DNA of 35,018 bases, taken from NCBI GenBank assembly GCA_002269645.1, contig NIVC01004788.1, positions 1 to 35,018 on the forward strand, given 5' to 3'. Below are positions 383 through 32,386 of the stretch, in pieces. Every line of letters begins with the position of its first letter. The first letter of the stretch is position 1. Under the pieces are notes generated by a model. It did not search any database. It worked only from the letters and a program-made list of their open reading frames with translations, and had not been told where the DNA came from. Origin of the DNA: Macrostomum lignano (Eukaryota). The position numbers were made by a program, and so were the translations under genes.

Positions 383-388
383 TATAAA
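383..388 (+). repeat. Target-site duplication, left copy (TATAAA)
   Basis: Identical TATAAA lies immediately after the right end (18644-18649); 6-bp TSDs are typical of Polintons. Confidence 0.9.
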
Positions 389-549
389 AGTAGTAGTATG
401 TTATAAGGGGCTGCGCCACACTTAATTGCTCGGGCGCATTGCGCGCCAGCTCGCTGGATGACTCAGCCCCTTATAACATACTACTACTACCAGGAGGTCA
501 TGGATTCAAGTGGTGTGTGATATGTAAATATACATATATCTGTGAGTGA

Positions 550-577
550 GGGTGTTGAGGGTGAGGGCATGGGGGGG
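550..577 (+). other. Potential G-quadruplex motif inside the TIR (mirrored at ~18453-18481 on the minus strand)
   Basis: GGG-tgttga-GGG-tga-GGG-cat-GGGGGGG fits G3N1-7 x4. Confidence 0.5.
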
Positions 578-886
578 CATTGGCCTGTGGAATATTTCAC
601 CGAACACAGATTTCCGGAATTTTTATACTTTTAAAAAGGGGGGTGCCCTCGCCCTCATGCCCTCACTCATTTTGAAAATCACTAAAAATAAGTGAAAAAT
701 GACTAAAAACAGGTGAAAATGGTCTGAAAACAGCGATTTTTTGTGATTTTCTAATTTTTTTAAAAAGTGCAATTTTCACGATTCCAGCTCTAAAACCATG
801 AGAAAAGTTGGATTCACGGGTCAATTTAATGCAATTTCAGGTATATACAATATGAAAGTGTCATCCAATTTGACGATAGTAAATTT

Positions 887-897
887 TATATATAAAA
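887..897 (+). promoter_or_regulatory. TATA-like box in the TIR (mirror at ~18129-18141), candidate inward-facing promoter
   Basis: TATATATAAAA ~95 bp upstream of the first + strand ATG. Genes at both ends point inward from the TIRs. Confidence 0.35.
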
Positions 898-990
898 TGG
901 CCTTCAGTAAACCATTATTTCTAGGAAATGCTTTAGATATTCAGTCAGGTATAGACATAATTGACAATTAGGCATAATCGCCATATAAAA

Positions 991-1729
991 ATGAATGATA
1001 AAAATGAACACATCTATCCTGTGGTTGAGCTGCATGAAGCAGATTTGAGGGAGCGGGACTATTTCAATCAGAGAAAGGGTGAAATCAAAGGCAGTATTGA
1101 ATGCATTACGAAAGATCTTACAATTTATAGCAAAAAGGTAAAAAAGTACAAACGACAAAGTAGCAGGATAAATTGGATCAACATTGTGACAGGAAATGTA
1201 AGTCTCTTGGCTGCTACAGGAATTGGCATAGCAACATCGATACTGACATTGAATCCCTTAGTTATTGGAGTAGTAATCGGGGCAATGAGTGGTTTTGAAG
1301 CTGTAAAATCCACGTCGTTGTTTGCAACTGTGAAAATGCATTGCCAAAAGCAGAAGGCAAAATACATTGTTCTCAGAGATCTGGCAAATCAATACAGAGA
1401 GAGATTGTATATTTACTCCCAAAAAGCAGTTGATGATTATAGATTAACTCTTGAAGAGGTTCAAGCAGCTGCTGCAATTTATTCAGAATACAGAGAGAAA
1501 AGAGACCAATTGTTAGACACCTGTGTTGCGCCTGAAGAAGTTAACCATTCGGAAGTCGTTGATAAAATCTCAAAGAGAGTAGACTTGGTCATCAGCGAAG
1601 GAAAAAATTAAAAAGGAACTGCTGGAGAAAGATCTGAGAGAAAAATTGGGTCTAGCTGATAAGCCAAAAGAGTACTCGGCAACACTCAATCTTCAATCAA
1701 ATGCTCCAAGTGCACCCCCCTATGCTTGA
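991..1729 (+). CDS. Polinton membrane protein (hydrophobic central segment, coiled-coil); one extra A at 1602-1607 splits off a C-terminus ending NAPSAPPYA*
   Basis: ORF 991-1611 has a hydrophobic stretch (INIVTGNVSLLAATGIGIATSILTLNPLVIGVVIGAM). The +1 frame continues KIKKELLEKDLREKLG...PSAPPYA to TGA at 1727-1729. Confidence 0.7.
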
Positions 1730-1754
1730 GTCTGTTTAATTTTTTTTCTTAAAA

Positions 1755-4700
1755 ATGGAAAGGAAAATACCAGCGGCCTCTTATGAATTCGATCTCGACT
1801 CCGTTGAAGAAATTCGCGGTTTAATCTCCCCAATTCTTTCCGAATATTTGATGGCTAGAGATTCAATAAAATACAGAATTTCCTTTGTCGCAGAATTTTA
1901 TAAAGGAACTACCGACAGTTGGATTGAGTTCCAATATCATTCAAAGTATCGAACTTTGTTAAATCTTCTCCAAGTGGAAACTAGTATAGAAAGTACAATT
2001 CAGGATGTTCTGGATGAATTCGATGGATGGAAGGATAGTTTTAATGAAAGGGGATCAGGATATTATTTTGTTAAGTTAGTAAAGATTGTGTTGAAAGTTG
2101 TTGGCATTAATCAGTTGAAAGGAGGAACTTATATTCTAATTCCAATTAAATCAAACGCATTAGTAAATGTTAAGAACACTAAAGACAATAGGTGCTTTCT
2201 CTGGTCTATTTTAGCAAAGCTCCATCCTGTGAAGGAACATAGATATAGAGTTGGTAAGTATACACAGTATATAAATGAAATAAACTTAGGAGACGTTAAA
2301 TTTCCAGTGGACATTCGAGATATCTCTGAGATTGAAAAGTTGAACAGTCTTCATATAAATGTGTTTGGATTGAGGGATATAAATACTAAAGAGTCAATAT
2401 ATTCTATTCGTCTGACAGAAGATTACGACAACCCCAATGTTATTGATTTACTACTTGTTGAAAATCATTATTGCTTAATAACAGACTTGTGTTTATTCCT
2501 CACGTCCCAAAATTACAACAGGGTTTTTCTTTGTCGAAAGTGTCTTCAAGTCAAATACTCCCAGGATGCACTGGATAATCATAAAGCAATCTGTAATGAC
2601 TTCAAAGTGTCAATTGAAGTTCCAAAGATTGATAAGAGGATATTAAAGTTTAAAAACTACCACATGAGTGTAAGAAAACCATTTGTGTTTTATGCAATAT
2701 TAGATTATGTAACGATGGATGATAAATCACTAGAGCTATCACAATGGACACTTTTTACTAGTTCCGACTATGAGGACATTATAAAATCAAATATTATTTT
2801 AAATACTACAGTGGAATCATTCGTTGAAACCGTAATAAAAAAGTTTGAGCATATAAAAAATGAAATGGATAGATATAAACATCCAAGATTAAGTGATGTC
2901 GAAGAGACTGATTACAAAGCGGCAGAACAATGTTTTCTCTGCTCAAGGCCATTTGTAGATAGTAAAAAAATTCGAGAGCATAATCACTACAATGGTAAAT
3001 ATCGCGGCGCAGCATGTCAATCATGTAATACCAAGGAGGGCAAGGCGAATCAAACGTACCGTTGTTTCTCCTGAATGAATCTGGAAAAGATCTAAACTAT
3101 TTGATAGTTCCATTAACACGAATAAAGAATACAGCTTATAAATTGGATTTCATTTCTAAAACATCGGAAGACCATGTTGCAATTAAGTGGGGAATTATAC
3201 CAGTGGTGTTGTGTTTTTAGATGGATCTAGGTTTTTGGAACCACCATTTACACTCTCTGAAGAAGAAATAAAATATTTGCCACCCAGTGATACAACAGCA
3301 GTAATTAGAAAGATTTACTCATTTGTCAACGCTTTTGAGAAGTTTCGATCAACATTTTTGAAATATTTCAAGATAGATCCTGCGTATTGCTTTTCCCTTT
3401 CTGGATTATCGTGGGCATGTGGGTTGAAATATACTAATGTGGAATTGGAATTACTTGGTGATAAAGAAATGATATCCATGGTAGAAAGTGGTATTCGCGG
3501 CGGTTTCTCTGGAGTTCTTGGAGATCGATATAAAAAAATGAATAACAAGTATTTAGAAAGTTATGACAGCAATTCTGAATCGTCGTACATGCTATACTTG
3601 GACAAGAATAATTTATATGGTGAAGCAATGATGAAAAATCTACCTGTGGGAGATTTCAAGTTTGAAAATGATCTAGAGTATCACAAGAATATTCCTAATG
3701 GCAGGGGTTGTTTTCTTGAAGTTGACCTTCAATATACAGAGGAATGTAAGAAAGCTACAAGTAAATATCCACTGGCTCCTGAGAAACGAACAACTAGGTT
3801 TGAGGATTTATCTGATATACAGAAGCAATATCGAAGTCGAAAAGAAAAAGTTTGTTCAATCCAAGTTGATGTTGACATTTTACAACAAGGAGAAATATGT
3901 TTTACATCACAGACTACTTGAGTTTTATGAGAAGATGGGCATGCGAGTTACGAGAGTTTATAGAATTCTTTCATTCAAAGAGTCAAACTGGTTGAGTAAA
4001 TACATCGAATTTAATACCAGGCGGAGAATGGAAGCAAAAACTAAATTTGAGAAAGACCTGTGGAAACTACTGAACAATTCATTCTACGGTAAAACAATCG
4101 AAAATGTAAAGAATAGGTCGAACTTTCATCTTGTAGCTGAAGAAAAAACTGCAAGGCGTTATTTTTCCAAACCAAATTTCAAAGATTTCATTATGTTTAG
4201 TGAGGATGCAGTTGGTGTCCAAATGTACAAAAAGACAATTGCGTGTGACAAGCCAATTTATTTAGGATGGCTATTCTGGATTATGCAAAAATGCTAATGT
4301 ACGATTGCTATTACAATTTATTGAGAAGAATTGGAACAGCTGTCAATTGCACTATTCTGATTGTGATTCGCTATATTCTCAGTGATTACTCAGGATGTTT
4401 ATGAGGATCTTGAAAAAATTAAAGAACACTTAGACACATCGGATTATCCAAGAGAGCATCCACTATACTCCGAGACGAACAAGAAAGTTATTGGAAAGTT
4501 GAAAGATGAAATGAATGGCTCAATAATTTCCGAAGCTGTATTCCTGCGGTCAAAGGAGTATGCTTTCACTACAGTTTCAGGGGAGTGTGTTACGATCAAG
4601 GGGGTTGATAAAAGCAGTACAAATATAAAGTTTGAAACTTTAAAAACATACTATTGACAGATTACAAAGATATTCAAAGAGGTAGAGTAAGTATGACTGT

Positions 4701-4815
4701 ATCTGAAAAAAATAAAATATATATTCGTGAGATTATGAAACAAACAATGAGTCCGTTAGATGATAAAAGATATTATTTGGATCCTATCAGATCTATTCCT
4801 CATCAGCCAATGTAA
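1755..4815 (+). pseudogene. POLB: Protein-primed-type family B DNA polymerase, frameshifted about 7 times as assembled
   Basis: Polinton-type N-terminus (ERGSGY, KDNRCFLWSIL, KIREHNHYNGKYRGAA), motif A YLDKNNLYG, motif B KLLNNSFYGK, motif C YSDCDS (4353-4370), C-terminal SPLDDKRY...IPH, stop 4813-4815. Confidence 0.92.
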
Positions 4816-4844
4816 TCTCATTGATAACATCTTCGTTTATTTTT

Positions 4845-7297
4845 TTACACAGTAAACACATTTCTAGTTTCTTGCTGTTTACCATCTATCCTACGCCTAT
4901 ATCTATCCTTATAATACTTACAATAGTCATTGTGATTCTTGAAGAAATCTGTTATGTATTGTTGTTGGAATTCACGTTTCTCACGTTGGGCTAGAGTCCT
5001 ATAGTATTCACTCTCTGTTGCGGCAGTGTAAATTTCTCTAATAAGCAAAAATGTTTTTTCCTCAGTTTCTAAAAATTCATAATTCTCTTCAAAGAAGTGA
5101 GCAAACCAATTACAATTCTGTATGAATTCATTAGTGTTTTCAATTACGCTTTTCGATCGATATATTTCACCCTTTGTTTGCTTGAAAATTTCTAGTAGGT
5201 GTTTCATCTCAGCAAACTTATATTTATTCTTAAACTCCTCGGTCTTAAGATATGAATCGGCTTTATAAATGTGTTTCGCATGATCAATGATGTCGGTATC
5301 TGTTGTATATTTACATGGGTAATTAATATTTATAATTCGTCTTTTTTCTGCATCTCCAATATTTTGTCTAAAGTCAGGCTTGTTATTGCATTCGACTATT
5401 AGGGTTGCGTGTAAAACGACATTACACTGGCTTGAATATAAATTTCTAGCTTGGATAACCCCACCACCAGTTAGTAATTTTATTGATGCATTGTTCAAGA
5501 CACCACTTACTTCTTGACTGATAACCAACCTCTTTTTATTAATTTGTGCTAGGGCTGGTTGTGGCCTGTCTATTCTTATTGGTAAATTCAAAACATCAGG
5601 ACTCAGTGGTGCTGCATAATCAGATCCTAGAGTTCTAAGAAGTAGGTTGTCCTCAACCCCTTGCCATTTCCACCAGCGCCATCAAACATTATAAAGTTTT
5701 CAACATTCTTACCCATTAGAGCTGTGGCTATAACGGATTCCCAACTTTTTCTATTTTCTGGATCGGGATGAATTTGGTTATGCAGATTAACAATGAAGCC
5801 ATAGTCGTAATCACTCACTCCAAGTACATCCGAGTAATTATATCCCACCGATTTAGTAACGTAATCGTCATATCTATACTCGCGAAACTCACCTGTAAGG
5901 AGGTCGTATACTCCATCGTTAAACCCTAGCAAATTCCATTTCATGTCGAATTCAATTTCATTGTTAGTAAACCTCTCTTTGAACAAAGTAGTTACCTGTT
6001 TGAGTTTGTTGGCTCCTTGTATTGAATTTATATTCTTTATTGTACTCTGTAGTTTCTTTTCAAGTGCTTTTAACTTCTCTTTATCATCAGCCGCCTTCTT
6101 AATTGCAATTTCGAGTCTAGTCTTTCGGTGGTTTAACTCACTGCTGACAAGGTGTGATATTTTAAGAAATATGTCATTTATACTACTTAGTTCTCTCCAC
6201 TTATCATCATCAAAATAGTAAATACCATCGCTATTGTAAATTATATTATTCTTCTTATATTCATAAACAAAGTTGGTTATATTAACGTCAGTGAAATTAT
6301 CATCAAGAAACTCAATCCTACCATAATAATCATATTTGCTTTTCCATTCCTTATATTTGTTATAGTTTTCTTCACTTGCCCATTTCTTTAGTGTACCGAT
6401 AGTAAGTCTGTCCTGTGCATCAGCAGAGCTGGTACTGGTGCTATTCCACACCTTTTTACATGATTCGGAATCGAACTTATCATAATTTACTTTTGACCAA
6501 TCAGTGAATACTTTGTACATTTCATCACCACTGTCTATGTCGCGGAGTATAAGTGCTACCTTGTACCAAGAATCATAGTCTTGGTTTTTGTGTTGTATTA
6601 TACTTAACAACTTTGAAGCTCCTTCACAAGTGGGTGGTGGAACGGTGCTTTTTAGTGCCTGTTTATCGGGTTCTTGGTTTTCTTTTTTATCCTGTGGCTT
6701 TATTAATCTATTTATCTCATCAAGAATTACATCTCGCATGTCTATTAAACATTTGGACTTTGTACGTTTGTATTCCCTAATTTCACCATCGACATAATAG
6801 AAACCTGGTGGAGCAAATACTAAGGCGGGAATATCAAAACCCACACTTTGTTGAATCGTTACTTTCAATCCATCTACTTTGTTAAAGTAAAAGTGGTGTC
6901 CCTTGTTTGTCTGAACAACCCAATCACAATGAGTCATACACAGTTCATTCAACTCAGGGCATAGGTCAGCATTATCAATATCGATTACGGTTATATTTGA
7001 GTTTCTAGTATCTATCCAAATCATGTTGTCTACATCTGGTCGAAATGGTGGTGAGGTTGAATTCCTATCTGCTTTGGTTGGCATTCCTGATGGTATTTTT
7101 TTCTTTGTTTTACTATTCCATGTTACACTGCAACTTCCGAATCTAAAATTAAGTTCTTCATAGAGATTAATTAGTTTATCGTACGATTTTGTTTGTTTTA
7201 AATTTGTCAATCTTGGTGGTGGGACATCATGGTTTTGAAGCGGATCCTGTACGATCACAGGAGAGAAACTTGAATCGTTTTGATTTTTTCTTTCCAT
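4845..7297 (-). CDS. D5-like primase-helicase (AEP/prim-pol domain, PriCT-2-like helical domain, D5_N, SF3 helicase); one frameshift near 5650
   Basis: VIDID and QTNKGHHFYF (AEP motifs); YDSWYKV...DWSK; LLGFNDGVYDL; Walker A GAGGNGKG; KRLVISQE; KLLTGG...ARNLY; CNNKP. ATG at 7297 has an A-run context. Confidence 0.85.
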
Positions 7298-7313
7298 TTT
7301 ATTTAAAATAAAT

Positions 7314-7655
7314 TTAACAATATAATTCATCAGTTTCAATGTACTTCTCAAGGGTTATGGGGAGTTTGAAAATGTTCAACTTAAGCATGACGAAAAATTC
7401 ATCATTCCTTATGTGCTGTCTCGAAATCAATGCCCATTTATCAACATGTGCAAGATATACTCTGAATGAATACAAATATGGGGGGCATTTACAATCGCTG
7501 TGTTTTAATATTTCTGCTTTATATTCATCGTAAGCTTTATCAATTTCTTCAATTAGTCGAGCCTTTCGAGTTGGTGTTTTTATTTGAGAGAAATTTATAA
7601 TAGAATCATAATACTTTTGTGGCAGTGCATTTCGTACATTTGGGTTAGCTTCCAT
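7314..7655 (-). CDS. Hypothetical protein, 113 aa
   Basis: Open frame with GAAAAATG start, co-oriented and tightly packed with the neighbouring gene. Confidence 0.6.
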   Translation of the reverse strand: MEANPNVRNALPQKYYDSIINFSQIKTPTRKARLIEEIDKAYDEYKAEILKHSDCKCPPYLYSFRVYLAHVDKWALISRQHIRNDEFFVMLKLNIFKLPITLEKYIETDELYC

Positions 7656-7753
7656 TTTTCTATGAAAAATTTAACATTTTTGCTTTCTTTTGGGCAAATT
7701 TCTATAGATAATCCAACTTTAGCATTTTCTGTGTATCATTATACTTTGTCTTC

Positions 7754-7969
7754 TTAAATTTTCGCTACTTTTGCGCCTACTTCATTGGCAGCTTTTTTAT
7801 TATTGACTGCCTTTGCGATTCCGGCAGCACCTGCCTGTCTTATGAGAGGTAGATTGTCTTTTAGTAAGTTGGAATGGTGCTTCTAGTATCAAAATACCTT
7901 CTCCATTGTACTCTAGGGCTCACCTATTGTATACTCTCTTAGCTTGCGTGGATCTGTAACGGGGCACAT
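7754..7969 (-). pseudogene. Possible small Ala/Lys-rich Polinton protein, frameshifted
   Basis: AAAAATG start at 7969 (MCPVTDPRKL). Fragments EYNGEGI and LLKDNLPLIRQAGAAGIAKAVNNKKAANEVGAKVAKI* lie in different frames. Confidence 0.35.
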
Positions 7970-8133
7970 TTTTGTCTATTTTTAGAAACAGAAAAATAAA
8001 CACAGGAACAGAAAAAGACTTTCAGACACCAAAGGCCAAACTCCATTGGGCTAAATGTGGCCTGCTCAAAGCGATGATATATTTGTTTAAATTATTACCT
8101 TAATAAATGTTTGATATCAAGTCATGTTGATAA

Positions 8134-8403
8134 TTATGGCGCATTAGATGGTTCTATATCAGCGCGGCATGTTGGGCACCTAACCATGTTGCCCTCTTGA
8201 ATTCCGGTGCGATAACATATTTCACAAACCACAGCTCGACAACATGCCATGGTAACGTTTGGTGGCCGTGGTTCGTGTTGGCAGATTGGACAAAGCCCTT
8301 GATTATTCCCCGGCTGAGCTGGATGGTTCTGTACTTGAGTCGGGTTATCCTCTGGTTGAATATCAGCTAGTTGGTGCTCCATATCTTGGCGATAAGCAAC
8401 CAA
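8134..8403 (-). CDS. RING-finger-like protein (C-terminal part; true start uncertain)
   Basis: CPIC-x11-CC-x4-CEIC-x12-CPTC spacing at the C-terminus. Confidence 0.7.
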   Translation of the reverse strand: MVAYRQDMEHQLADIQPEDNPTQVQNHPAQPGNNQGLCPICQHEPRPPNVTMACCRAVVCEICYRTGIQEGNMVRCPTCRADIEPSNAP

Positions 8404-8518
8404 GCGCCTCTCTGCTTCTTGAACGCGACGTTTTTGAAGATAGTAGTTCTAGGAAAGGGTTTGGTGCGCTCGTATATGATTTTTGTAAACTTAAAACCTT
8501 ATAATGTAAAAACACTTT

Positions 8519-8710
8519 TTAACTAACCTTTAGCTGATTAAAGAAGCGCTCTTCATTAGCCAAATTTTGTGGGTTATACTCCAAAAAGATGTTGATGGCA
8601 ATATCTCTAAACATTGAGTTCCTATGGTGTTGTCGCAAATTTCGCTCACGAATTCTAAGAGTTGCTCTAGCGGCAGTAAGCCTCTCGTGCAAATTCGAGA
8701 AAGAAGGCAT
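8519..8710 (-). CDS. Hypothetical 63 aa ORF, possibly the frameshifted N-terminus of the RING protein
   Basis: Same strand, directly upstream, Arg-rich helical sequence. Confidence 0.35.
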   Translation of the reverse strand: MPSFSNLHERLTAARATLRIRERNLRQHHRNSMFRDIAINIFLEYNPQNLANEERFFNQLKVS

Positions 8711-8818
8711 TGTAGGAATGATATTTTGTAAGAAGGTAAAGTTAGTAGAGAAAAATTACTAGACCTTGCCGCTCGTGGCCATTCATTTATATATTTTTAT
8801 GACAAAACGTCAGACCCC

Positions 8819-8919
8819 GCATTCCATTCAGACCAAAACACGAGACCAATTTTTATCTTTTTATTTTTCGAAATTTTCTTCTCGCGTTTTGGTCTCGCGT
8901 TTTGGTCTGAATGGAATGC
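8819..8919. repeat. 31-bp inverted repeat (1 mismatch) with 39-nt T-rich spacer
   Basis: gcattccattcagaccaaaacacgagaccaa (8819-8849) pairs with ttggtctcgcgttttggtctgaatggaatgc (8889-8919). Confidence 0.9.
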
Positions 8920-8927
8920 ATGACTCA

Positions 8928-9406
8928 GTGTAGCAAGAGTATAAGATAAAAAATATAAAACCCCGAATTCCTGTGTTAGTCATCGAGTGAAGTTTGCCTA
9001 CTTGCTTTGCTATCTTGGTCGGACAATAGCCGACCATATTGTTGCGGTGCGAGCTTGCTTCTGTGTAGCAAGAGTAGATGAAAAATATAAAACCCCGAAT
9101 TCCTGTGTTAGTCATCGAGTGAAGTTTGCCTACTTGCTTTACTATCTTGGTCGGACAATAGCCGACCATATTGTTGCGGTGCGAGCTTGCTTCTGTGTAG
9201 CAAGAGTATAAGATAAAAAATATACAACCCCGAATTCCTGCGTTACTCATTGAGTAAAGTTTGCCTACTTGCTTTGCTACGGTGGTTGGACAATAGCCGA
9301 CCATATTATTGCTCTGCGAGATTGCTTCTGTGTGTAGCAAAAGTAGATGAAAAATATACAACCCCGAATTCCTGCGTTAGTCACTGAGTGAAGTTTGCCT
9401 ACTTGC
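8928..9406. repeat. Tandem repeat, ~132-135 bp unit, ~3.6 copies, in the element's central non-coding region
   Basis: ccccgaattcc recurs at 8961, 9093, 9228 and 9362. Confidence 0.92.
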
Positions 9407-9501
9407 CAGCTTCCTAAGATAGTAATTTTTTGTTTATTGACCCCGTTGGGAGTTTTTGTACTTATGTTGTGTTTTTATGGTGACTATGGTATTATGTCTA
9501 A

Positions 9502-10910
9502 TTATGTGACAATTATGTCTAAAATCGGATAAAGTTGAAAGCCTGAAACAATAAGAACAGTTGATCCTTCAGTGGCTGAATTAATATGCACTCTATAACC
9601 GGAGAATTTTTCGGTGGAAGCTACTTCAAAATATTTCATCACTCCAGGAACTAAACCAGCATTTTCGGTAGAAAAAATATTCCTAAAGTCTCTCTTGTTA
9701 TTGCTCCCTTTCAGAATAAAACTTTTTGGTTGATTTTTTATAATTTCACTACCTACTGCTTTGGTTCCTTTCAATCCGAATTTCCAAATTTGAATAGATT
9801 CAGGAAGTTGTACTTCAATGTAAGAATTGGGTTCATTCCTCGATGCCCATTCTGAATTAGATACTATATAACCCCAATTATCTGACGTTTCAAATGCTCC
9901 TGATGACGCTACATTGAAACCCCTTTCTCTATAGTTTTGACGTGTTGCTAGTGAGGGAATATATCCTGTATAAGATTTGAAACCTAGTCCCCGCCTTAGT
10001 CGCAGCTCCACTGATTCAAGTGCATTGTCTACGTATAGCTTTGGTACAGCTTGAAGTCTATCTATAGGCCACACTAAATCATTAACCACTGTTTGTCTCT
10101 CAAGTAATTCAACTTTTGTAAGCTTTACGGAACCAGAAAAATTAAGAGAATAATGGAAATAATATGAGGGTTTGGGTATTTTTTTCCTAAGATGTGCATT
10201 GCCCCTTCGTAGTTCAATGGGTGCACTTTGTTCAACAGGTGTCCAGTTTGTTCCATTTAGGCTCACACTAACAGACCAACCAGGCCACACCTCTCCTTCC
10301 AACTTTATCTCTACAACTTTCCTAGCTCTTTTCAAAAATTGAAATCGTATCCACTTGTCTGAGTCATCTGCACTGCTCCATTCTGAAGCCGGGTTTGAAT
10401 CTGCAACATGATATGCTGCTGAAGAGTTATGAGAAGCGGTCACTTTCATGTCAGGATGGGAAGCGTTTGAAGTCAGTAATGAAAGAATATTGACTAATTT
10501 CGAACTCTCTGTACCTCCCGCAGTACCTTGCCTTTCTGCTAACAAAGTGTCAATCTCAGTTTTAGAATACATCTTAGTGTCAATCTCAGTTTTAGAATAC
10601 ATCTTAGTGTCAATTCAGTTTTAGAATACATCTTAGTGTCAGTTTCGGTTTTTGTGTAGACATTGTTTACGCGCCCATGAGCATCGTCAATTAATTGTAG
10701 CATGGTGATATTCATTGCGTCACTATCTTCCTTTGAATAAGAGTCTGAAACATTTCTCTTTGCTAACAATAAATTATCTATTTCCTCTCTCTTATATCCT
10801 TCATTTTCATTGATGTATCGATCATCAGCTAACGCTATTGTTATTCCAGGTGCTATATCATTTGAATTTGACGAGTAACCAAATTGATTAGCAGTATTCT
10901 TGTAACTCAT
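9502..10910 (-). CDS. Fibre/receptor-binding-like protein: YxKxEID stalk repeats plus two discoidin (F5/8 type C)-like domains; 1-bp deletion near 10614
   Basis: YKREEID, YSKEDSD, YTKTETD and (MYSKTEIDTK)n repeats. Two domains have SEWxS...W/Y-I-x-x-Q-F/L patterns, plus FILKGSNN and FSGYRVHI. Confidence 0.65.
10546..10640. repeat. Coding 30-bp tandem repeat, ~3.2 copies (MYSKTEIDTK)
   Basis: agtgtcaatctcagttttagaatacatctt repeated; the third copy lacks one base. Confidence 0.9.
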
Positions 10911-11338
10911 TTTAATTGCTGCAAAATTTCATTATAGCTATCTCCTTTATCGATTCGATGTAAAAAGTACAGCGACATTTGACCACAAAATTTCTTATCT
11001 AAAGTTTGAATTTGTTCTTCCATGTCTCCACATATTCTATTCTTTGTGTGATTAAACTTTTCCATAATTTCCAGTGTGGGCGGTAGTGCATAGGAATCAA
11101 AAAAATAAACCTTATCATGAGCTGAAAAGATAGCTGAATGATGTATACCCCGTTCTTTCGAAGTGTGAATATTTGTCATAAAGTAACCATACTGTGGTAA
11201 ATCAACAATTTCATCTCTCATGGCATAGCGAAATGGTTTTAACTTGAGATATTTTGCCCAATTTATCAGATCAATATTAGTCGTAGTGTCAGTCCCAAAC
11301 TTTTGTTTAAATGCATTCCATGTCTCAGCTTCGCTCAT
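10907..11338 (-). CDS. PRO: Adenain-like cysteine protease
   Basis: GIHHSA (His), YFFDSY (Asp), QIQ...FCG (Gln, Cys) in adenoviral-protease order; TAAAAATG start at 11338. Confidence 0.9.
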   Translation of the reverse strand: MSEAETWNAFKQKFGTDTTTNIDLINWAKYLKLKPFRYAMRDEIVDLPQYGYFMTNIHTSKERGIHHSAIFSAHDKVYFFDSYALPPTLEIMEKFNHTKNRICGDMEEQIQTLDKKFCGQMSLYFLHRIDKGDSYNEILQQLK

Positions 11339-11347
11339 TTTTAACAC

Positions 11348-12139
11348 TCATATTTGTCGTACGTGTAGATTTATAAATATTTCCTCGCCATCAAAGTCGT
11401 ATAGAACACCAGACTCATCTTCGATGACAAAGTCGAATGTGCTCAACATGTTTGTAGTTAGTGGTAGGTACACAGGATTTGCAGGCTCTTGAATAATTTT
11501 ACTTCCCATTGGGACAGAGAACGATGGAATTGAAAGAAGTATTTGCTTATCAATTAAATGATTTCCATTGGCTGGATCAGTGATAAAACCCCCTTTGATA
11601 TTGAGACAACGAACCATGATCGCACTTCTAGCTCCGTCTATCCGAGCTGGATTTGGAGCTCTCTCAAATGGTTTCAAATACACTTCCGAATTGAATCCCA
11701 ACAGTCTTCTAAAGTTATTGGAATGTGCATCCCTGAAATCAACTTGATACTCTGTGGCTAACCGTAACTCAACCCTACGCGTGTCTAGGCTTGCACTGAA
11801 AACAATAGCCCCCTCTTTCCAATCATTTGCAGCTGTTAGCAATCTTTGAATCTCGCTTGACAGACTTTTAACTTCCCAAGATCCTGCTTGAATCTTTATT
11901 TTCTTCCATGTTCTACCACTATCCCTCGAGTATCGCAACTCATTATTGCCTCCTTCAATATTGTTAATAGCATCAAAGACTGCAAACTTTTTTATACCAG
12001 CTTCGTATTCTCGATCTTCATACAAATTTATCGGAGTGCCTAGAGTTTGTCGAAATGGGTTTTTAATTGAAAAGAAGTCAAATGTGCGTTGAAACTTTTT
12101 ACTCAAGAGGATGTTGACTTTTTCTATTTCTTTTTCCAT
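11348..12139 (-). CDS. PX: Minor capsid protein (penton, single jelly roll)
   Basis: PINL...EAG, NNI...NN, GSWEV, LLGF, MVRCLNIKG, ILLSIP...PMGSKI...P...YLPL, EDESG...DFDGE pattern typical of Polinton mCP. Confidence 0.8.
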   Translation of the reverse strand: MEKEIEKVNILLSKKFQRTFDFFSIKNPFRQTLGTPINLYEDREYEAGIKKFAVFDAINNIEGGNNELRYSRDSGRTWKKIKIQAGSWEVKSLSSEIQRLLTAANDWKEGAIVFSASLDTRRVELRLATEYQVDFRDAHSNNFRRLLGFNSEVYLKPFERAPNPARIDGARSAIMVRCLNIKGGFITDPANGNHLIDKQILLSIPSFSVPMGSKIIQEPANPVYLPLTTNMLSTFDFVIEDESGVLYDFDGEEIFINLHVRQI

Positions 12140-12141
12140 TT

Positions 12142-12873
12142 TTAAGCAAGTAATTCTACTAGCTCTTTATCAACATTGTTATGTCCCTCTGCTTTTGCGG
12201 CTAGTAATGTCAACACTCTTTCACTGAGTCCAGATCCCGGTTTTACTCGATATCCTGGTGGATTATCTTTCAATATCCTTACTGCTTGCTTATAATTCCC
12301 ACTTGATTTGGCCGCTGGATTTTTACAGTGTTCAATGAGGTTAACATAATCCTGCAATGTTTGCATCTTGAATTGCTTCAGCTCTTCACCATTTTCAGTT
12401 ACTTTAGGCATTTTGAACAACTCTTCAAGATCTTCAGAAAATGGCATTCGGAATTCGTTGACAATGATGTCCCGACCTTGTTCATGGAATTCAACCTCTA
12501 TTACAGATGATCCAAATATATATCCAGCATCAGTTTTTTGAATCCGTATACTAGGCGCTGGTCTTTGAGTTATTGGAATCTTTCCAATTTCTTCAATTAT
12601 TTTGTCAAATACTTCCAGAGGTTCAAATCGTCCTTTTGGTGTACTTAATTGCGGAACTGGAACTTTTTGATTCTGAAGTTTATCAACAAGGTTGGCATTG
12701 AAATCAATAAATTCATCAAGCTTTTCTGTGACAGGTTTTTGAGCTAATGGAGCCACTCTTGCATATAAACTCTCTTCTCCAATTTTCAAATAGCGTTGAG
12801 CATCATTTCTGGATTTGTACGTTTCTCGCTGCTTTGCTAAATTAATGAGTTCTCTTATATATTCATTAGTCAT
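12142..12873 (-). CDS. Conserved Polinton hypothetical protein, 243 aa
   Basis: Intact ORF between ATPase and mCP. C-terminal LSERVLTLLAAKAEGHNN...ELVEL resembles a motif I recall from Polinton proteins. Confidence 0.7.
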   Translation of the reverse strand: MTNEYIRELINLAKQRETYKSRNDAQRYLKIGEESLYARVAPLAQKPVTEKLDEFIDFNANLVDKLQNQKVPVPQLSTPKGRFEPLEVFDKIIEEIGKIPITQRPAPSIRIQKTDAGYIFGSSVIEVEFHEQGRDIIVNEFRMPFSEDLEELFKMPKVTENGEELKQFKMQTLQDYVNLIEHCKNPAAKSSGNYKQAVRILKDNPPGYRVKPGSGLSERVLTLLAAKAEGHNNVDKELVELLA

Positions 12874-12875
12874 TT

Positions 12876-13649
12876 TTACAATGGGATTTTAGTTAGAACA
12901 TCCTTATACAAATCTTGCTCATCCTCATCAGCTCTTGTATTTATATAGATATAGCCATACTTCTTTTTCCAAGCCTCTCTACATTTAGCCTTGAATATAG
13001 CGGGTTCATAATTCGTTTCTATATTTCTAGCAATGTGATTTAAGTTTGTATCTTTTTGTTTAAAGATTATGTAACATGTCGTATTCTCCCTGACAGTATT
13101 GCGATCTAGTTTGGTAAAATTTTGAGCTAGATAAAAACCACAACAGTTTCCATGCCTGCCTCTCTGAAACAGACTTTCCTGAAATGTTTGATTAGCCTCT
13201 CCCAAAACATCGTCCAATATCACACATGTCTTTAGTCCATTATGAAAAATTTCTTCATTTGGAGTATGGGAAAGAGTGACAGGAATTTTCTCTATTACTT
13301 CTGAATTTTCTGATGTGCTTTGCACTCGACCAGGGTTGGCTGCCTCTCGACAAATATGTCTAATATCTTCAGGAGATGCATCCTCACTCACCTGGTAGAC
13401 ATGATAGAGTGAGTTGATAAGAGAAGGTGGGAGACCATTTTCAAAGCCATATTTTAGAAACTGATACTCTGGATCCATTTGAGATGCTCTGGGAACATAT
13501 AAAACTAACTCATTAAAGTCAACTAGTTTTTCAGGACTTGTAAGAATATGGAATAGTAAATATGTTTTACCCGTATTTGTAGCGCCGATAATACAACATA
13601 AAAGAGGATTAGGGAAAATAGGATCATGCTGAAATTTTACTTTGGGCAT
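12876..13649 (-). CDS. ATP: A32/FtsK-like genome-packaging ATPase
   Basis: Walker A GATNTGKT, Walker B VILDD, RGRHGN, LAQN. Confidence 0.92.
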   Translation of the reverse strand: MPKVKFQHDPIFPNPLLCCIIGATNTGKTYLLFHILTSPEKLVDFNELVLYVPRASQMDPEYQFLKYGFENGLPPSLINSLYHVYQVSEDASPEDIRHICREAANPGRVQSTSENSEVIEKIPVTLSHTPNEEIFHNGLKTCVILDDVLGEANQTFQESLFQRGRHGNCCGFYLAQNFTKLDRNTVRENTTCYIIFKQKDTNLNHIARNIETNYEPAIFKAKCREAWKKKYGYIYINTRADEDEQDLYKDVLTKIPL

Positions 13650-13670
13650 TTAAAAAAAGAAAAAATGACC

Positions 13671-15035
13671 TTATTCGACGCGGGTCATTTGATATTCACT
13701 GGTAACTTTTATTACATTCTTTGTTTGTTCAAGAATTAGTGCAAAAGCAGTCAGCTCAACATTTGTTGACTTCTTGATAAATAATTGAATATTCACTCCA
13801 CTCTTGACCAGAAACTCATCTTGAGCTGTTAGATCAAAGCAAAAGATTGGATAGATGGTTAGAAAGTCTTGTTTATTGAATGGAGGAGTTACACCGAAAC
13901 GGCTGCAGATGTCTTCGTACATTTCATACGCTCTGTGAATGTCTTGAGCTACTGGATCAATTTCAACATAATCATTCGGATACATCACCTGATTTAATCT
14001 GACTTGAAGCTGGGTTATTTTCACTGCATTTGCTCCAGTTTTGTAAGACACATACTTGTGATCATTAACTATATATGATGGGTTGTTTACGTCATATTTG
14101 AAAGCTACAAAGATTGCAAGTGGCATATTGGAGATGTTGGCTATGTTCCATGTATATGGACTTCCTTGAATGAGTTGTGGTGGAACCGTTACCCTCTCTG
14201 GAAATGATACTGTAATGTCCTTGTTGAGTGATTTTAGAAAAGCTGCTTCAGCACTGGGTGACAAAGTAATAGCAGGGATCCAAATCTCAAAGCTATTAAT
14301 AGTTAACTTAGCTTCCGTCCCGGCAGCTCCAAAGAAAATTTCAGCATCGTTAGTCTTTCTTGTCCATGTGAATTTATATTTAATTCCTTTGCTAATCTTC
14401 TGCCAATCAAGGAACCCAATGAGAGGTGTTAATGATAGTTTGATTGTTCCACCTCTGTTTGGAGCATTAGTGACATTGTTATAATTTTCAAGCCTCCTAA
14501 TGTATCCAGTATTCGAATCCTTCTTATTGAGTCTATTTTTCATAGCGATTGCTGCAGTTCTCACAGCTTCAGCATCTGCGTTGTTTGCTAGAGGTATATC
14601 AGAAACAGTCCCAGCATCTCCAGTGTCTGGAATCCATCCGTATGCTTCTCCAACTTCATTCATTAATTTTGAGTACATTACGGACTTTAAGATTGTGTCA
14701 TACTCTCCAGGATCATTATAGACTTTCTTTGTTCCTCCAATGTCAACTATGAGTTGAGAGAAAAGTCTCATAGGCCAATTATGTTCTAGAGTAATGTTCG
14801 TATTCAAGTCGGTGTTATCTCGTTGTGTTATTGAGTATTTTATACAACCGAATGCCTCTGACATGAGAATGTATGACTCTGTTGAATTGACTTCATGAAC
14901 TATTTGACCTCCTGCAACATTGAGATTATTAGTGCTACCTGGAGTTGGAGAAATCTTAATATAGTCTTCTTTCTTTTTGAAAAAGCTAAAAGTTTTGTCC
15001 TCATATATGCTCAGTATATCCTTTTTGTTCTCCAT
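13671..15035 (-). CDS. PY: Major capsid protein (double jelly roll), 454 aa, intact
   Basis: Size, position and motifs (RLFSQL..DIGG, IGFL.W, EIWIP.I.LS, P.AIFV.F, QV.LN...YP, YPIFCFDLT) match Polinton MCP. Confidence 0.85.
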   Translation of the reverse strand: MENKKDILSIYEDKTFSFFKKKEDYIKISPTPGSTNNLNVAGGQIVHEVNSTESYILMSEAFGCIKYSITQRDNTDLNTNITLEHNWPMRLFSQLIVDIGGTKKVYNDPGEYDTILKSVMYSKLMNEVGEAYGWIPDTGDAGTVSDIPLANNADAEAVRTAAIAMKNRLNKKDSNTGYIRRLENYNNVTNAPNRGGTIKLSLTPLIGFLDWQKISKGIKYKFTWTRKTNDAEIFFGAAGTEAKLTINSFEIWIPAITLSPSAEAAFLKSLNKDITVSFPERVTVPPQLIQGSPYTWNIANISNMPLAIFVAFKYDVNNPSYIVNDHKYVSYKTGANAVKITQLQVRLNQVMYPNDYVEIDPVAQDIHRAYEMYEDICSRFGVTPPFNKQDFLTIYPIFCFDLTAQDEFLVKSGVNIQLFIKKSTNVELTAFALILEQTKNVIKVTSEYQMTRVE

Positions 15036-15078
15036 TTTTATAAGAGAAATTTCAACTAAGCTTCATGAGGTCTAAGAA

Positions 15079-15507
15079 TTATCCCATTACCCTGTTTCTC
15101 CTTTTCAACTTTAAAGTCTTTAGCAGCCACTTGACTGCTTCGCTGGGTACTTGTTCGACTCTTTTAGCCGCATCAACTAATACTCCACTCCCTTGAGCCT
15201 TTTTCAACTCTTCTAGTTTTTGCCGTTCAATGCTTTCTATTGTCTTATTATGTTTAGCATTGTTGGCTGTATTAACACTTTTTGCAATCATTGTACCAAC
15301 TCCTGAGGCTGCTCCGATACCACCCAAAATTGCTGGTAGTAAGCCTAATAGAGGAATTATTCCACCTTCATGTTCTTTCTGTTTCTCTTGCAATTCTCGA
15401 ATCTTCTCTTTAGAAAGATATTGCTTTTGCTTATTTACAGTAACATATCTTGGTTTTCCCTCTCGAACATATCGATTGAGTCTTGCTTCAGTGTTTTTCT
15501 CGCTCAT
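15079..15507 (-). CDS. Small basic protein with an adenovirus pX-like hydrophobic segment
   Basis: EGG|IIPLLGLLPAILGGIGAASG; TAAAAATG start. Confidence 0.65.
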   Translation of the reverse strand: MSEKNTEARLNRYVREGKPRYVTVNKQKQYLSKEKIRELQEKQKEHEGGIIPLLGLLPAILGGIGAASGVGTMIAKSVNTANNAKHNKTIESIERQKLEELKKAQGSGVLVDAAKRVEQVPSEAVKWLLKTLKLKRRNRVMG

Positions 15508-15515
15508 TTTTAAGG

Positions 15516-15938
15516 TCAGAATTTCTTCAAACCATTGCCTTGTCTCAAAGACACTTGAGACTGTTCTGCTGTTCCTAGAGCCTTTTTAACAATATCTTGA
15601 ATAGCCTTATTTGATTGAGAAGCTATCTGTTGCTCTTCTTCCATTCTTTTCTTTGCTTCTTTATCTCTACGTTTCTTTTTAATATATTCCAGTTCCTCAC
15701 CTGCTTTAGACATGTCACTGTATGATTTCTTCGCATCGAATATGTTCTTCGCTGTGGTAGCTGTTTTACCTATTGCATCAGCTCCACTCACAATTTTACT
15801 TCCATGATTTGATAAAAAGTTTGTGACACCACTGATCATATCACCAATTCCTTCACCCTCTTTATCAGCTAGTAGTTGTGAATCAGACGTTTCAATCTGA
15901 CCTTTCGCCCGTTTGCAGTTTGTTCGATAGGCGCTCAT
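15516..15938 (-). CDS. Small virion-type protein with an amphipathic, adenovirus protein VI-like helix
   Basis: TAAAAATG start at 15938; GEG|IGDMISGVTNFLSNHGSK. Confidence 0.6.
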   Translation of the reverse strand: MSAYRTNCKRAKGQIETSDSQLLADKEGEGIGDMISGVTNFLSNHGSKIVSGADAIGKTATTAKNIFDAKKSYSDMSKAGEELEYIKKKRRDKEAKKRMEEEQQIASQSNKAIQDIVKKALGTAEQSQVSLRQGNGLKKF

Positions 15939-17165
15939 TTTTAGTTGAAAAATTTGCTGGTAGAAGCTGGGATTTGTAAAATGATCCAATGATTTCTTCT
16001 CCATTCTCATCCTCAATAATGTAGGTTATGGGATTGGAGTAAACTATTTTCTTTATCCTAAACACTTCTGAAATTTTCCAATATCCTCTTCGACCCTTTT
16101 CAAAGTGCTCCTTATATCTATAGATATGAACTTTGTCACCTACTTTGAAGTTTGGTTTCTCATTTGAATACTCGAAAGTTGGCTTTGGTACTCGCTCAGG
16201 ATGTTTAGATGCTTCTGAAGGAGTTATCAGAATCTCAGAATGGATTGTGTTGTTGTATTTTTCAACAATAGCTGGCAATGTGTGGAGCCACTTCTGATTA
16301 CCCTGTAGATCAAATTCAAACCAGAGTTTATTTGTGAGAGTACGATTGAACCTCTCAATCATTGCATTCTTGGACTCGCCATAAATTGAAAACATCTTGT
16401 TAATATATTCACCCTTTCATCCTTCTTTCTAATGTTGTCTTTTGAAAACGAGTATAGCTTGTACATATGCTGATTATAAAACTCCTTGCCTTCATCTACA
16501 CAAAGTCTCTCTGATCGTCTTCCTGATTCCTTAAATACTTTTTGGAAAGCTTCTGCAACTTCCGCTCCCGTCTTTGTTTTCAAAGGAACTGCCCAGGCGT
16601 AACGTGTAAAACCATCTATGATAGTTAGAGCATATTTGTAACCTCTTTCGGGCGGTAGGATAATGATATCTGCATGCCAAATTGTGTCTTTTGCATAGTG
16701 AATCATTTTTCTAAATACTCTTGGCTTTCGATATTCTTTATGCAATTTTACTGCATCTTCATAGCTAAGACCCTTACCATAAATTGTTAGACAGTCAATA
16801 CAATTGTTGGGGTTGTGAGTATGAATGCCTAATCCAAACCGAACTTTAGCCTTGATAATACGCTTTACTAGATTTCGAATGAGTCTCTCTTTCACAGACA
16901 AGTCACTGGTTGGAATAGCATCTAAATCAGCTATCATTTTTTCATCAGCTATATGCTTCTTTGCTAGAGCTTCCTCTGGATTTGAAGAAGTGTTTTCAGC
17001 ATCTCTATAGTTTTTGTCATGATAGTAAGCAGTCCAATCGATTGGGTTAATTGGTAGACTGTCATACCGAGGCCGGTCTGTAATTGGATTGAGTCTCTTG
17101 TCTAAATTTGTACCCGGCAGTTGTTCCTCAATCTTTCGAAAGAGGCTGGACTTTATCTTAAGGCT
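15892..17165 (-). CDS. INT: PLA2-like domain fused in frame to a retroviral-type (RVE) integrase; frameshift near 16400; 5' end unresolved
   Basis: IDWTAYYHDKNY...IADE (PLA2-like); WHAD, IDGFTRYAW, CVDEGKEF, IERFNRTL (DDE triad); C-terminal FKVGDKV...FEKG...YW...GSFY. Confidence 0.88.
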
Positions 17166-17232
17166 TCATCAGGATTGACCAGATCCTTCAGCCCCACCCC
17201 CATTAAGTCTCTGAACCTTCTCCATATCCTTG

Positions 17233-17919
17233 TCAACTTCGTTCGGACTTAGGAGCTTGGCTGCGGATTTCCACCATGTCCTCAAGCTTGTTACCATCGA
17301 ACCATAGGTTCGCGGACGAAGTCCGATTGGGAACAGGAATTACCTGTGTTCCTTCAGAAGATTTCTCAACTGAAGTGGTACTTGAGGCTGTTATTGACGT
17401 ACTAGAATCGGACGGAGTTCCCGCAATTTGAAGGTGTCGCCAATCACTAAGCACTTGTTTAATGTTGGTTATAATGTTTTTGTATTGATCACCATAAAGA
17501 AATTTCAATGCAAATTCTCCTGTTATAAGGGTGATTCCATTGTCTAGTAAAATATTCTTAGGTTCCTTTGTAGTTTTATTGATGCATACATAATACAACT
17601 GATAGATGGGATAAGAATTTTTATAGTCTAATAGTTTCTGATAATTCCTTTCACGACTTGATGAACTGTCCGTGTTATCAGAAGATTTAAGCTCTAATGC
17701 AATCTTTCGCTCAACGTGAACCAGGTCAATCTTTTTTACCTTCTCGAATCCAAAATAATTTTCTGCTAATATTTCATATAGTCTGCCTAGTCTCATTTGA
17801 ATAACTTTAATCTTGTGTGAAATTATTAACTCTTCTTGGAAAAGATCATGAAGAATTTGATCATGCCCAACCTTATCATCAATTGGTTTCAGAAGAATTT
17901 CTCGAATTGTTTGCTCCAT
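17233..17919 (-). CDS. PD-(D/E)xK endonuclease, Eco47II/Sau96I-like restriction endonuclease candidate, followed by a Ser/Thr-rich tail
   Basis: K-x2-Q-x2-LG-x2-YE helix, IDL, and ELKSSDNTDSSSS match the pattern I recall for RE_Eco47II (Q..IG..H.. / D / EIK.K.NT.NSSS). TAAAAATG start like the other element genes. Confidence 0.68.
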   Translation of the reverse strand: MEQTIREILLKPIDDKVGHDQILHDLFQEELIISHKIKVIQMRLGRLYEILAENYFGFEKVKKIDLVHVERKIALELKSSDNTDSSSSRERNYQKLLDYKNSYPIYQLYYVCINKTTKEPKNILLDNGITLITGEFALKFLYGDQYKNIITNIKQVLSDWRHLQIAGTPSDSSTSITASSTTSVEKSSEGTQVIPVPNRTSSANLWFDGNKLEDMVEIRSQAPKSERS

Positions 17920-18077
17920 TTTTACTATAGAAACTTTAACAAGTGCTTATTTGATGACTAGCAAGGACATTGACTTCCTCACTCAGGCCACTACGTAACC
18001 TGCAAAAGAATACCCTGGAATATGAAGTTCTCCTGGGTATTTTCCAGTGGCGAAGATGGGTGGTAGTTTTGTTATAG

Positions 18078-18643
18078 CTGACTGAATATCTAAAGCATTT
18101 CCTAGAAATAATGGTTTACTGAAGGCCATTTTATATATATAAAATTTACTATCGTTGAATTGGATGACACTTTCATATTGTATATACCTGAAATTGCATT
18201 AAATTGACCCGTGAATCCAACTTTTCTCATGGTTTTAGAGCTGGAATCGTGAAAATTGCACTTTTTAAAAAAATTAGAAAATCACAAAAAATCGCTGTTT
18301 TCAGACCATTTTCACCTGTTTTTAGTCATTTTTCACTTATTTTTAGTGATTTTCAAAATGAGTGAGGGCATGAGGGCGAGGGCACCCCCCCTTTTTAAAA
18401 GTATAAAAATTCCGGAAAATCTGTGTTCGGTGAAATATTCCACAGGCCAATGCCCCCCACATGCCCTCACCCTCAACACCCTCACTCACAGATATATGTA
18501 TATTTACATATCACACACCCACTTGAATCCATGACCTCCTGGTAGTAGTAGTATGTTATAAGGGGCTGAGTCATCCAGCGAGCTGGCGCGCAATGCGCCC
18601 GAGCAATTAAGTGTGGCGCAGCCCCTTATAACATACTACTACT
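18078..18643 (-). repeat. Right terminal inverted repeat (~566 bp)
   Basis: Reverse complement of 389-948. Confidence 0.95.
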
Positions 18644-18649
18644 TATAAA
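18644..18649 (+). repeat. Target-site duplication, right copy (TATAAA)
   Basis: Matches 383-388. Confidence 0.9.
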
Positions 18650-19859
18650 AAATGTAGGTAGTTTTTTTTCTAAGAGTGAGATATATACAAAAAATTGCAC
18701 AAAAATTATACACAACTTTCTATTCCAAAATTGCTATGCAAATATTCTATCTTAGTATATAATAATATAGCATATAGGGCATATAGATAACACTTAATAA
18801 ACAGGTCTATAATCCACTTAACAAAATACTGTTTTAACAAAACACAGTATTTTGTTAAACTAATATGATTAATAAATAAAAGCAAAAAGAATCAATAACT
18901 AAACAAATTAAAAAAAGGATACTAACATATATATTTATGGCAGTGCTTATTATTACCTTTGTCATAATGCCAATGGTTACATGTTATCGATATAGTATTA
19001 AGCCAACAATGCCCTGCTTATTTGACTTATGCACAACTGCTAGCCAACCCTGCCCATCTAGCCACTGTAAATTGTGAAGAATATAAATATAATACTAATT
19101 AGCTAAATTTTATATGTTATGAAACATTTTGCCTTAATAAGATAATCATAGTTATTCCTGCTATTTATCCAAAATTTGCTTTAGCTTTAGGGTTGCTTTA
19201 GGGTTTTTTTTCATAAGTTGCATTTTTTTTAAAAAGTAAGTTGCATGGCTAGTATAAATCAGGGGGGTTACATATGTTTGATTTGAATAATAGCTAAATT
19301 ATAAATATATCATAGGCCTATTCTTAGCATATGCCATACTAATAAACAATATTATCCATGTGGTACCATGTCAAAAATGCTTTGCTTATTTACATAGCAG
19401 CTAAATTATAATATTTGGTATTAACTTGGAAAATTACATTATATTAAAATAGGCTAAACTAAAAAAGGTAATAGTCCAATTCAGTAACAGCCACTTTGGT
19501 AACAAATGATGTCCAATTCAGTAATAGCCATTTTGGTAAAAGCCATTTAGGTTAAAATTAGTGGAAATACAATATATATTGATTGATATACTCAAAAAAG
19601 ATTTTGCAAACAAACTTTAAAGAAAGAACAACAAAAAAAGTAATTAAGATACATTCTCACAAACTTTGAGATTTGGATTGATAATGAAAACTAGGCCTAA
19701 GCATATTTTAGTCTACATGTATTTTTATTTTTATTTCCAGTTGTGGCAGATGCATATATATAAGCTAAGATATCCTGTTGACCAAATATTGTGTATATTA
19801 GAATCTCTGAGTTAGCAACTTCATTTACCAAATCTACTTTTTTCTTCATTTATAATTAG

Positions 19860-20570
19860 AAATACTTATCCCCACAGTCCCATGTCAATAATTCCAATTT
19901 TATCCACACAAATCCGTGTCAATAATTTCCAGCTTATCTCTATGGCAGCTCATTGGGATAGAGAACCTTAAAATGAATCTGTATAAAAATCTGTTCATTT
20001 GTTTGTTTTCACTTTTCTACAAATCTTCCAAATAAACTAGCCTACTGAATACTGAATAGTATTGAGTACTTTGTTAAAACTTTTTTGTCATTAAAAGGGT
20101 TAATTTTAAATATTTGCTTAGCTGCCAGCTTTGCTTAGAATGACTAAACAACCTTAAGATTGAGGCAAATGAGACTTGCAAAATTCAAATTTCAAAATGT
20201 AATACTTGTAATAATGATAATTATAATTTAATGTCAGTACACAAAACTAAACAACTGCACAATCTTAGCTGTGGGGAAAAGCTGAAAATTCTTGACACAT
20301 CTGTGTGGATAAAATTAGAATTATTGACATGGCCTATAGACTTGAATAGTGGCAGCTATTTCAATAAGCTGCAGTGAGAATAAGCTGTAGAAGTTAAATT
20401 ATCAACATGGATCCACGTGGATAAAATTGGAATTATTGATATAGCCTATAGACTTGAATGGTGGCAGCTGTTTCAATAAGCTGCCATGCAGGGGATAAGC
20501 TAAAAATTATCGACATGGATCTGTGGATAAAATTGGTATTTTTGGCATAGGACCGTGGGGATAAGCACTT
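19860..20570. mobile_element. Degenerate MITE-like element with ~90-bp imperfect TIRs and ~110-bp internal subrepeats
   Basis: 19860-19950 matches the reverse complement of 20479-20570 (roughly 80% by eye). gtggataaaatt recurs at 20305, 20417 and 20523. Confidence 0.6.
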
Positions 20571-31096: not shown

Positions 31097-32162
<1,066 letters not shown>

Positions 32163-32386
32163 TGAGTGAGTGTGTGCCTGTGCATACGACTGCGTATGTA
32201 TCCGAGTGTGCCTGCTCAGGGAAGTCGGGCGGAATGGACAGTAATGCTTATCGATTGCAACCCATGATGCTTTTGTATTTTTTTCACGATTTTTGCAATT
32301 GTAACAACGCATAAGTTAAAGCTTGAGATCTAAAAGGTATTTTAAACTCCAATCCAAAGACTCAAATACTCAAGTTGCCATTGACG

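Follow-up and report, generated by a model that had tools for sequence, protein, structure and literature searches.

The locus analyzed here raises the question of why the ends of a Polinton should be able to fold back on themselves. The window, a 35,018-nt stretch of Macrostomum lignano DNA (NCBI GenBank assembly GCA_002269645.1, contig NIVC01004788.1, positions 1 to 35,018 of the forward strand), holds an 18.3-kb Polinton at 389-18643 between two copies of TATAAA. We refer to its family as F1 and to other Polinton families of the same genome as F2, F3 and F4. As a sequence-only reading had claimed, the terminal 25 bp recur in inverted form at each end: the 25-mer is present at 389-413 and 18544-18568, and its reverse complement at 464-488 and 18619-18643, giving a perfect stem at both ends. 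The features of the element are as follows.

383..388, no strand: left target-site duplication, TATAAA
389..413, + strand: left fold-back outer arm, the terminal 25 bp, with three AGT units at its start
414..463, + strand: left fold-back loop, 50 nt, in one orientation in 65/65 ends
434..444, no strand: small dyad 1, unsupported as a folded arm; possibly a double-stranded binding site
446..457, no strand: small dyad 2, unsupported as a folded arm
464..488, - strand: left fold-back inner arm, which co-varies with the outer arm
389..953, + strand: left terminal inverted repeat, about 565 bp
1755..4816, + strand: protein-primed PolB gene, in pieces in the assembly
4845..7330, - strand: D5-type primase-helicase, two frames
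12876..15035, - strand: A32-like packaging ATPase and double-jelly-roll major capsid gene
15892..17165, - strand: rve integrase with PLA2-like N-terminal domain, two frames
18073..18643, - strand: right terminal inverted repeat
18544..18568, + strand: right fold-back inner arm
18569..18618, - strand: right fold-back loop, identical to the left loop
18619..18643, - strand: right fold-back outer arm, the element end
18644..18649, no strand: right target-site duplication, TATAAA

The element carries the hallmark set of a Polinton, namely long terminal inverted repeats, AGT-repeat ends and a 6-bp target duplication, together with Pfam matches to an rve integrase (PF00665), a packaging ATPase (PF04665) and a double-jelly-roll capsid (PF21738). 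Further Pfam matches were to a PLA2-like domain with the integrase, a D5 primase-helicase, and an endonuclease VII-like domain in the polymerase. It is thus like Polinton/Maverick elements of the adintovirus type, for which the available text of PMC8097293 and PMC4196379 gives AGT-repeat termini, a 6-bp duplication, long repeats, pPolB, rve integrase, ATPase and capsid. Elsewhere inside the element, at 8819-9406, a 31-bp inverted repeat (8819-8919) is followed by four repeats of 132-135 bp. On the host side, dispersed inverted repeats and satellites of 21, 8 and 14 bp occupy 18981-21873 and 29565-35018, and a GC-rich block lies at 22-29 kb of the window.

Frameshifts interrupt the polymerase gene in the window and in five other copies examined; their places differ, and they are possibly assembly indels. 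In a structural model of the F1 polymerase, the first 300 residues had a mean pLDDT of 79.9. Residues 4-120 matched a Y-family little finger (Z 7.6, rmsd 3.2, 103 aligned) and residues 129-247 a viral OTU protease (vOTU; Z 8.6, rmsd 3.1, 103 aligned), the Z values for the terminal-protein fold being middling on the tool's own scale; the best viral fold match was a protein of Drosophila-associated adintovirus 2. C147 and H238 show no variation among 16 sequences. The available text of 10.1101/2024.03.18.585575 describes a layout of terminal protein plus vOTU and places the linking residue of the terminal protein in a loop; the matching loop of the F1 polymerase has a Ser between Gly residues. 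We conclude that the F1 polymerase is predicted to keep a terminal-protein and vOTU module in that layout, so that, as modeled, the window element is a Polinton with its own protein-priming module. The PolB also contains an endonuclease VII-like HNH domain (PF02945, present in both the F1 and F2 polymerases), polymerase motifs, and exonuclease motifs that are substituted in the window copy and in other copies examined (L224-L228). These substituted motifs and the D5 gene echo the pattern of exonuclease loss and helicase gain given in the same source.

When the 100-nt end was folded as DNA, we obtained z = -8.4 and -9.8 for the two strands, and none of 200 shuffles folded as well. The loop alone folded like its own shuffles (z 0.12 and 0.01). 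The sequence-only reading had placed two small palindromes in the loop, and these are indeed located at 434-444 and 446-457; when the loop was mononucleotide-shuffled 20,000 times, two such dyads arose in 38 cases, by a criterion chosen post hoc. The Y/T shape that they were thought to give did not hold up, since it lies 4.8-7.9 kcal/mol above the best fold, the pair probabilities of its arms are 0.01-0.30, and a compensatory change was seen in none of the 8 arm pairs among sibling ends. The loop palindromes more probably act as binding sites in double-stranded form than as arms of a T. The GCGCA dyad (434-444) and a TGACTCA motif at 459-465 resemble an NRF-1 and an AP-1 site, respectively. 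A GC-rich dyad-like motif is also present near the ends of F2, F4 and one 9-kb family.

A search of the 764-Mb genome with the loop motif yielded 86 matches, all of which were inspected with their flanks. They fell into 61 flank groups, 59 of them true ends and two of them groups of truncated internal pieces; one match that stops at an N run duplicates an already assigned end. An independent interior motif (76 matches) added 13 places, comprising nine hairpin ends (six with new flanks, three duplicates), three rearranged repeat pieces without an end, and one unrelated match. In total, F1 has 65 ends with distinct flanks, and the inner arm and loop are in one orientation in all of them. In addition, short-read contigs from independent runs span the outer arm into the loop and the loop through the inner arm into the interior. 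Because the fold-back is seen at 65 distinct-flank ends and short-read contigs span both of its junctions, it is not an assembly artefact.

The suggestion that the ends might invert during replication found no support among these ends, with 0 flipped among 65. The exact sequence of a flipped junction had no match genome-wide, and the single match to a relaxed pattern proved to be host flank beside a normal end. A strand-change joint is listed in none of the contigs of eight runs, which is weak as an absence because assembled contigs drop rare forms. Several copies deviate in other ways. In some ends a truncated piece of another subtype, comprising loop and inner arm, lies 840-900 bp inside (L011, L014, L015, L051, L053), and an insertion of ~230 bp interrupts the inner arm of one end (L032, L045, L221). 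A 3.9-kb internally deleted copy (C2719:99690-103571) lies within the polymerase gene of a same-family copy, with a 6-bp duplication.

Stem conservation and co-variation across siblings had been predicted, and both hold in the F1 alignment, which for co-variation comprised 58 of the 59 ends (34 distinct rows; the end with the insertion was omitted). Changes on both sides occur at 7 of the 25 stem pairs, compared with 3.5 in shuffles that leave the relatedness among copies in place, and 0 of 500 such shuffles reached this number; the co-variation score was 0.100 vs 0.046 when shuffled. After five ends with indels were set aside and the window copy taken as reference, the stem was perfect in 41 of 53 scored ends and imperfect in 12. 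Relative to the window copy, we counted 33 substitutions in both arms (9 types), 14 in the outer arm only and 17 in the inner arm only. Diversity is 0.063-0.068 in the arms and 0.033 in the loop, yet the arms keep pairing; conservation of the loop is unremarkable, as 3 of 17 interior windows are equally conserved. Taken together, stem conservation and co-variation indicate that the fold-back is of importance or, at the very least, that it forms.

The double changes are spread over several clades of a tree of the repeat interior (51 ends, with interrupted or short ends left out). In one insertion a double change is confined to the left end and missing from the right, while the repeats otherwise differ at 4 of 470 positions. 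Such an end-private double change indicates that the arms of a single end are copied from each other, without passage through the distant repeat. By eye, patches were apparently copied in both directions, from outer to inner arm in C925, C574 and C1429, and from inner to outer arm in C3469. In one F1 subtype the hairpin is kept though the repeat interior has been replaced.

The fold-back recurs with unrelated sequence in two further families. F2, whose capsid is 25-28% identical to that of F1 and whose exonuclease motifs are intact, gave 38 pattern matches in the genome. Its end has 27 flush matched bp followed by about 55 imperfect bp and a loop of about 110-140 nt, and its arms match at 479 of 513 positions over 19 ends, compared with a maximum of 476 in 10,000 shuffles. 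All 25 oriented F2 ends have the same arm outside (0 flipped), and in each of them exact matching ends at bp 27. In F4 (37 matches), a stem of about 77 bp was found in 25 of 27 ends examined. This stem is recessed, with pairing starting at nt 9-14 and 8-13 terminal nt left unpaired, and the inner AGT end is absent; the arms share patches, and one copy shows near-complete conversion of the inner arm. The ends of F1, F2 and F4 have only their first 7 nt, AGTAGTA, in common.

Both F2 and F4 have a pPolB. F4 combines the F2 capsid module with another polymerase type that has no HNH match. In the F2 and F4 elements at C283:573284-591840 and C506:477342-494412, capsid, ATPase and integrase are 88-97% alike, while the polymerases have no BLAST match to each other and the terminal 250 bp are unrelated; from these comparisons it looks as if polymerase and end module were swapped together. 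In F3, whose polymerase is of the HNH type and whose ends are AGT ends, no fold-back was found in four ends of three elements. Since F3 has the same AGT termini without a fold-back, the feature is not required by Polintons in general. One end from each of two 9-kb families likewise had no fold-back. These 9-kb pPolB elements (C566:83277-92764 and C173:199634-208632) have repeats of 0.9-1.2 kb and TAC/ACT-type termini, and showed no BLAST match to the capsid or integrase of the window. A clean repeat pair was not found within the stretches examined of C166, C2285, C2466 and C1300.

We considered whether the fold-back goes with a particular gene, and three candidates were rejected. A tie to the HNH/endonuclease VII domain fails because F3 has the domain without the fold-back and F4 the reverse; a tie to the D5 primase-helicase fails because a D5-like long ORF was not found in one annotated F2 and one annotated F4 element; and a tie to exonuclease loss fails because the F2 motifs are intact. 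Judged by this distribution over F1, F2, F3 and F4, the fold-back is a trait that recurs within one lineage whatever the state of HNH, D5 and exonuclease. For other hosts, three protein scans of viral contigs revealed no relative, Polinton proteins were absent from all 89 loci of a pattern scan, and 80 metagenome integrase loci had no recognisable element end. The only long stem among the 89 loci is on a contig that resembles an RNA phage.

Our preferred reading, to which we assign a probability of about 0.5, is that during protein-primed replication the stem forms on single-stranded intermediates, where it marks or opens the end, and that it is not a rolling-hairpin primer. Both arms would pair within one strand, which would most plausibly be the one that protein-primed replication displaces or one exposed at excision. 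While paired, the arms may be corrected against each other in patches, either by template switching or by heteroduplex repair. The folded end could then serve as a duplex end for the terminal protein and polymerase, or for the integrase, and would remove the need for contact between repeats that lie 18 kb apart. The fold-back would thus be a local end-recognition or origin structure. Three points weigh against this reading: matched arms could come from copying alone, without selection; imperfect ends still move; and F3 manages without a fold-back.

The mobility of imperfect ends is seen in copies whose imperfections are common to both repeats of an insertion, namely 7-kb copies with 2-3 stem mismatches and the 3.9-kb copy, which has 4 mismatches in the terminal 7 nt of both repeats. 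Since both repeats have them, such ends were replicated and integrated. In one copy the last 7 nt cannot be paired by either inner arm, yet its outer ends are intact and it has a 6-bp duplication.

Less probable than the preferred reading, though the strongest of its competitors, is that two double-stranded protein-binding sites in inverted order, or the relic of a duplication, make up the arms, that these are kept alike passively, and that the fold has no role. Generic template-switch correction of quasi-palindromes keeps their arms alike, and both the patchy two-way copying and the end-private double change fit such correction, as do the imperfect ends that remain mobile and the F3 elements that lack the feature. 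However, passive correction leaves the position and the repeated origin of the fold-back unexplained. It is at the very end in three families with unrelated end sequences, and the stop of the F2 exact match at bp 27 in every oriented end also speaks against this explanation.

Self-priming in the manner of a parvovirus, which the sequence-only reading had raised as a possibility, we regard as unlikely. The folded 3' end would here prime synthesis, and asymmetric resolution, aided by D5 or HNH, would keep one orientation. This is geometrically possible in F1, and a flush stem, as found in F1 and F2, would give a paired 3' terminus. The substituted exonuclease motifs and D5 gene of F1 also speak for it, some parvovirus termini occur in one form only (available text of PMC8242256), and the same model has been proposed for protist virophages and PLVs in the accessible part of 10.64898/2026.07.28.741278. 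Against it, none of the 65 F1 and 25 F2 ends is flipped, whereas AAV shows both forms according to the portion of PMC11575299 available. A Rep/HUH gene was not found by Pfam among 20 proteins, nine of which had no match at all. The 8-13 unpaired terminal nt of F4, the replication of the copy whose last 7 nt are unpairable, the predicted terminal-protein module kept in the polymerase, and the failure to find a D5-like long ORF in the annotated F2 and F4 elements all argue in the same direction.

It is more doubtful still that the flush stem is an excision signal, by which a hairpin or cruciform at the border would be cut by the polymerase HNH domain or a host nuclease to release a precise end. 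The base of the stem does coincide with the insertion border in F1 and F2, both of whose polymerases carry PF02945, and a local fold would need only 100-300 nt of single strand instead of 18 kb. Yet F3 has the HNH domain without a fold-back, and F4 has a fold-back with no HNH match and a stem that is not flush. Loops of 50-140 nt, as found here, disfavour cruciform extrusion. Finally, a mini-element reading, in which the 100-bp unit has an integrase end on either side and yields solo copies or additional sites of excision, is largely refuted and very improbable. The unit is indeed bounded by AG...CT ends, and truncated pieces of loop and inner arm lie 840-900 bp inward in some copies. Yet each of the 86 loop matches belongs either to an element end or to a truncated internal piece, with no solo unit between host flanks among them; the inner AGT repeats are dispensable for mobility, F4 has no inner AGT end, and in F1 that end faces outward and so could not start a longer copy but only close a 100-bp unit.

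Fold-back palindromes are also known from the telomeres of linear Streptomyces replicons, where they lie at protein-capped ends and serve recognition, not self-priming. Those telomeres are bacterial, with several short palindromes and dedicated telomere proteins. The Polinton ends may be analogous to them in their fold-back palindromes.

Terminal palindromes, with a hairpin-priming model, have been reported from protist virophages and PLVs. The available part of a 2026 preprint (10.64898/2026.07.28.741278) reports terminal palindromes in endogenous virophages of Halocafeteria seosinensis and in one PLV subtype and proposes hairpin priming. Like the Macrostomum elements, these are integrating small DNA viruses with palindromes inside the terminal repeats, adjoining the target-site duplication, and with a proposed role of the hairpin in replication. 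They differ in being protist elements with a 52-nt palindrome, preferentially non-pPolB replicases and a priming model, and the section on palindromes, in the text available, has neither a co-variation nor an orientation test. The Macrostomum Polintons are animal elements with pPolB and a predicted terminal protein, 50-140-nt loops, co-varying arms and one orientation, and one family (F4) is not flush. The association with non-pPolB replicases is not matched here, as F1 has pPolB and D5, and F2 and F4 have pPolB.

Compared with parvoviral (AAV) ITRs, as given in the available text of PMC11575299 and PMC8242256, a terminal stem able to pair the 3' end (in F1 and F2, not F4) and small internal palindromes are shared. 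In contrast, the Polinton ends have no supported T arms and no flip and flop among integrated ends, no Rep nickase was found, and the Polinton gene set is a double-stranded, protein-primed one.

What is new here is the fold-back in protein-primed animal Polintons, together with its co-variation and fixed orientation. In the standard racket model, as set out in the accessible text of PMC4196379, only the two distant repeats pair. The strings "hairpin" and "palindrom" are absent from the main text of a nematode survey (10.1101/2023.08.22.554363), in whose supplement no terminal sequences were found, and from the available main text of a vertebrate survey (PMC8097293). The accessible portions of PMC11296320, 10.1101/2022.05.25.493380, 10.64898/2026.10.13.758929 and PMC9863843 contained nothing on Polinton end hairpins. 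Our literature search, with most subscription papers and the 2006 Polinton original outside its coverage, found no description of such fold-back ends in animal Polintons.

For the exit of Polintons from the chromosome and the start of their replication there are models, apparently without demonstration in the literature consulted. The co-varying arms are a sequence record of within-strand pairing of the ends, and the fixed orientation limits the hairpin-priming model proposed for protist virophages. The 100-nt end offers a substrate for folding, binding and priming assays, and a single genome supplies natural controls in which the stem is flush (F1, F2), recessed (F4) or absent (F3). More tentatively, it is possible that an animal Polinton lineage gave up the long-range racket in favor of a local fold-back origin at either end, which would have been rebuilt three times from unrelated sequence, swapped with the polymerase gene, and kept matched by arm-against-arm copying on a single-stranded intermediate.
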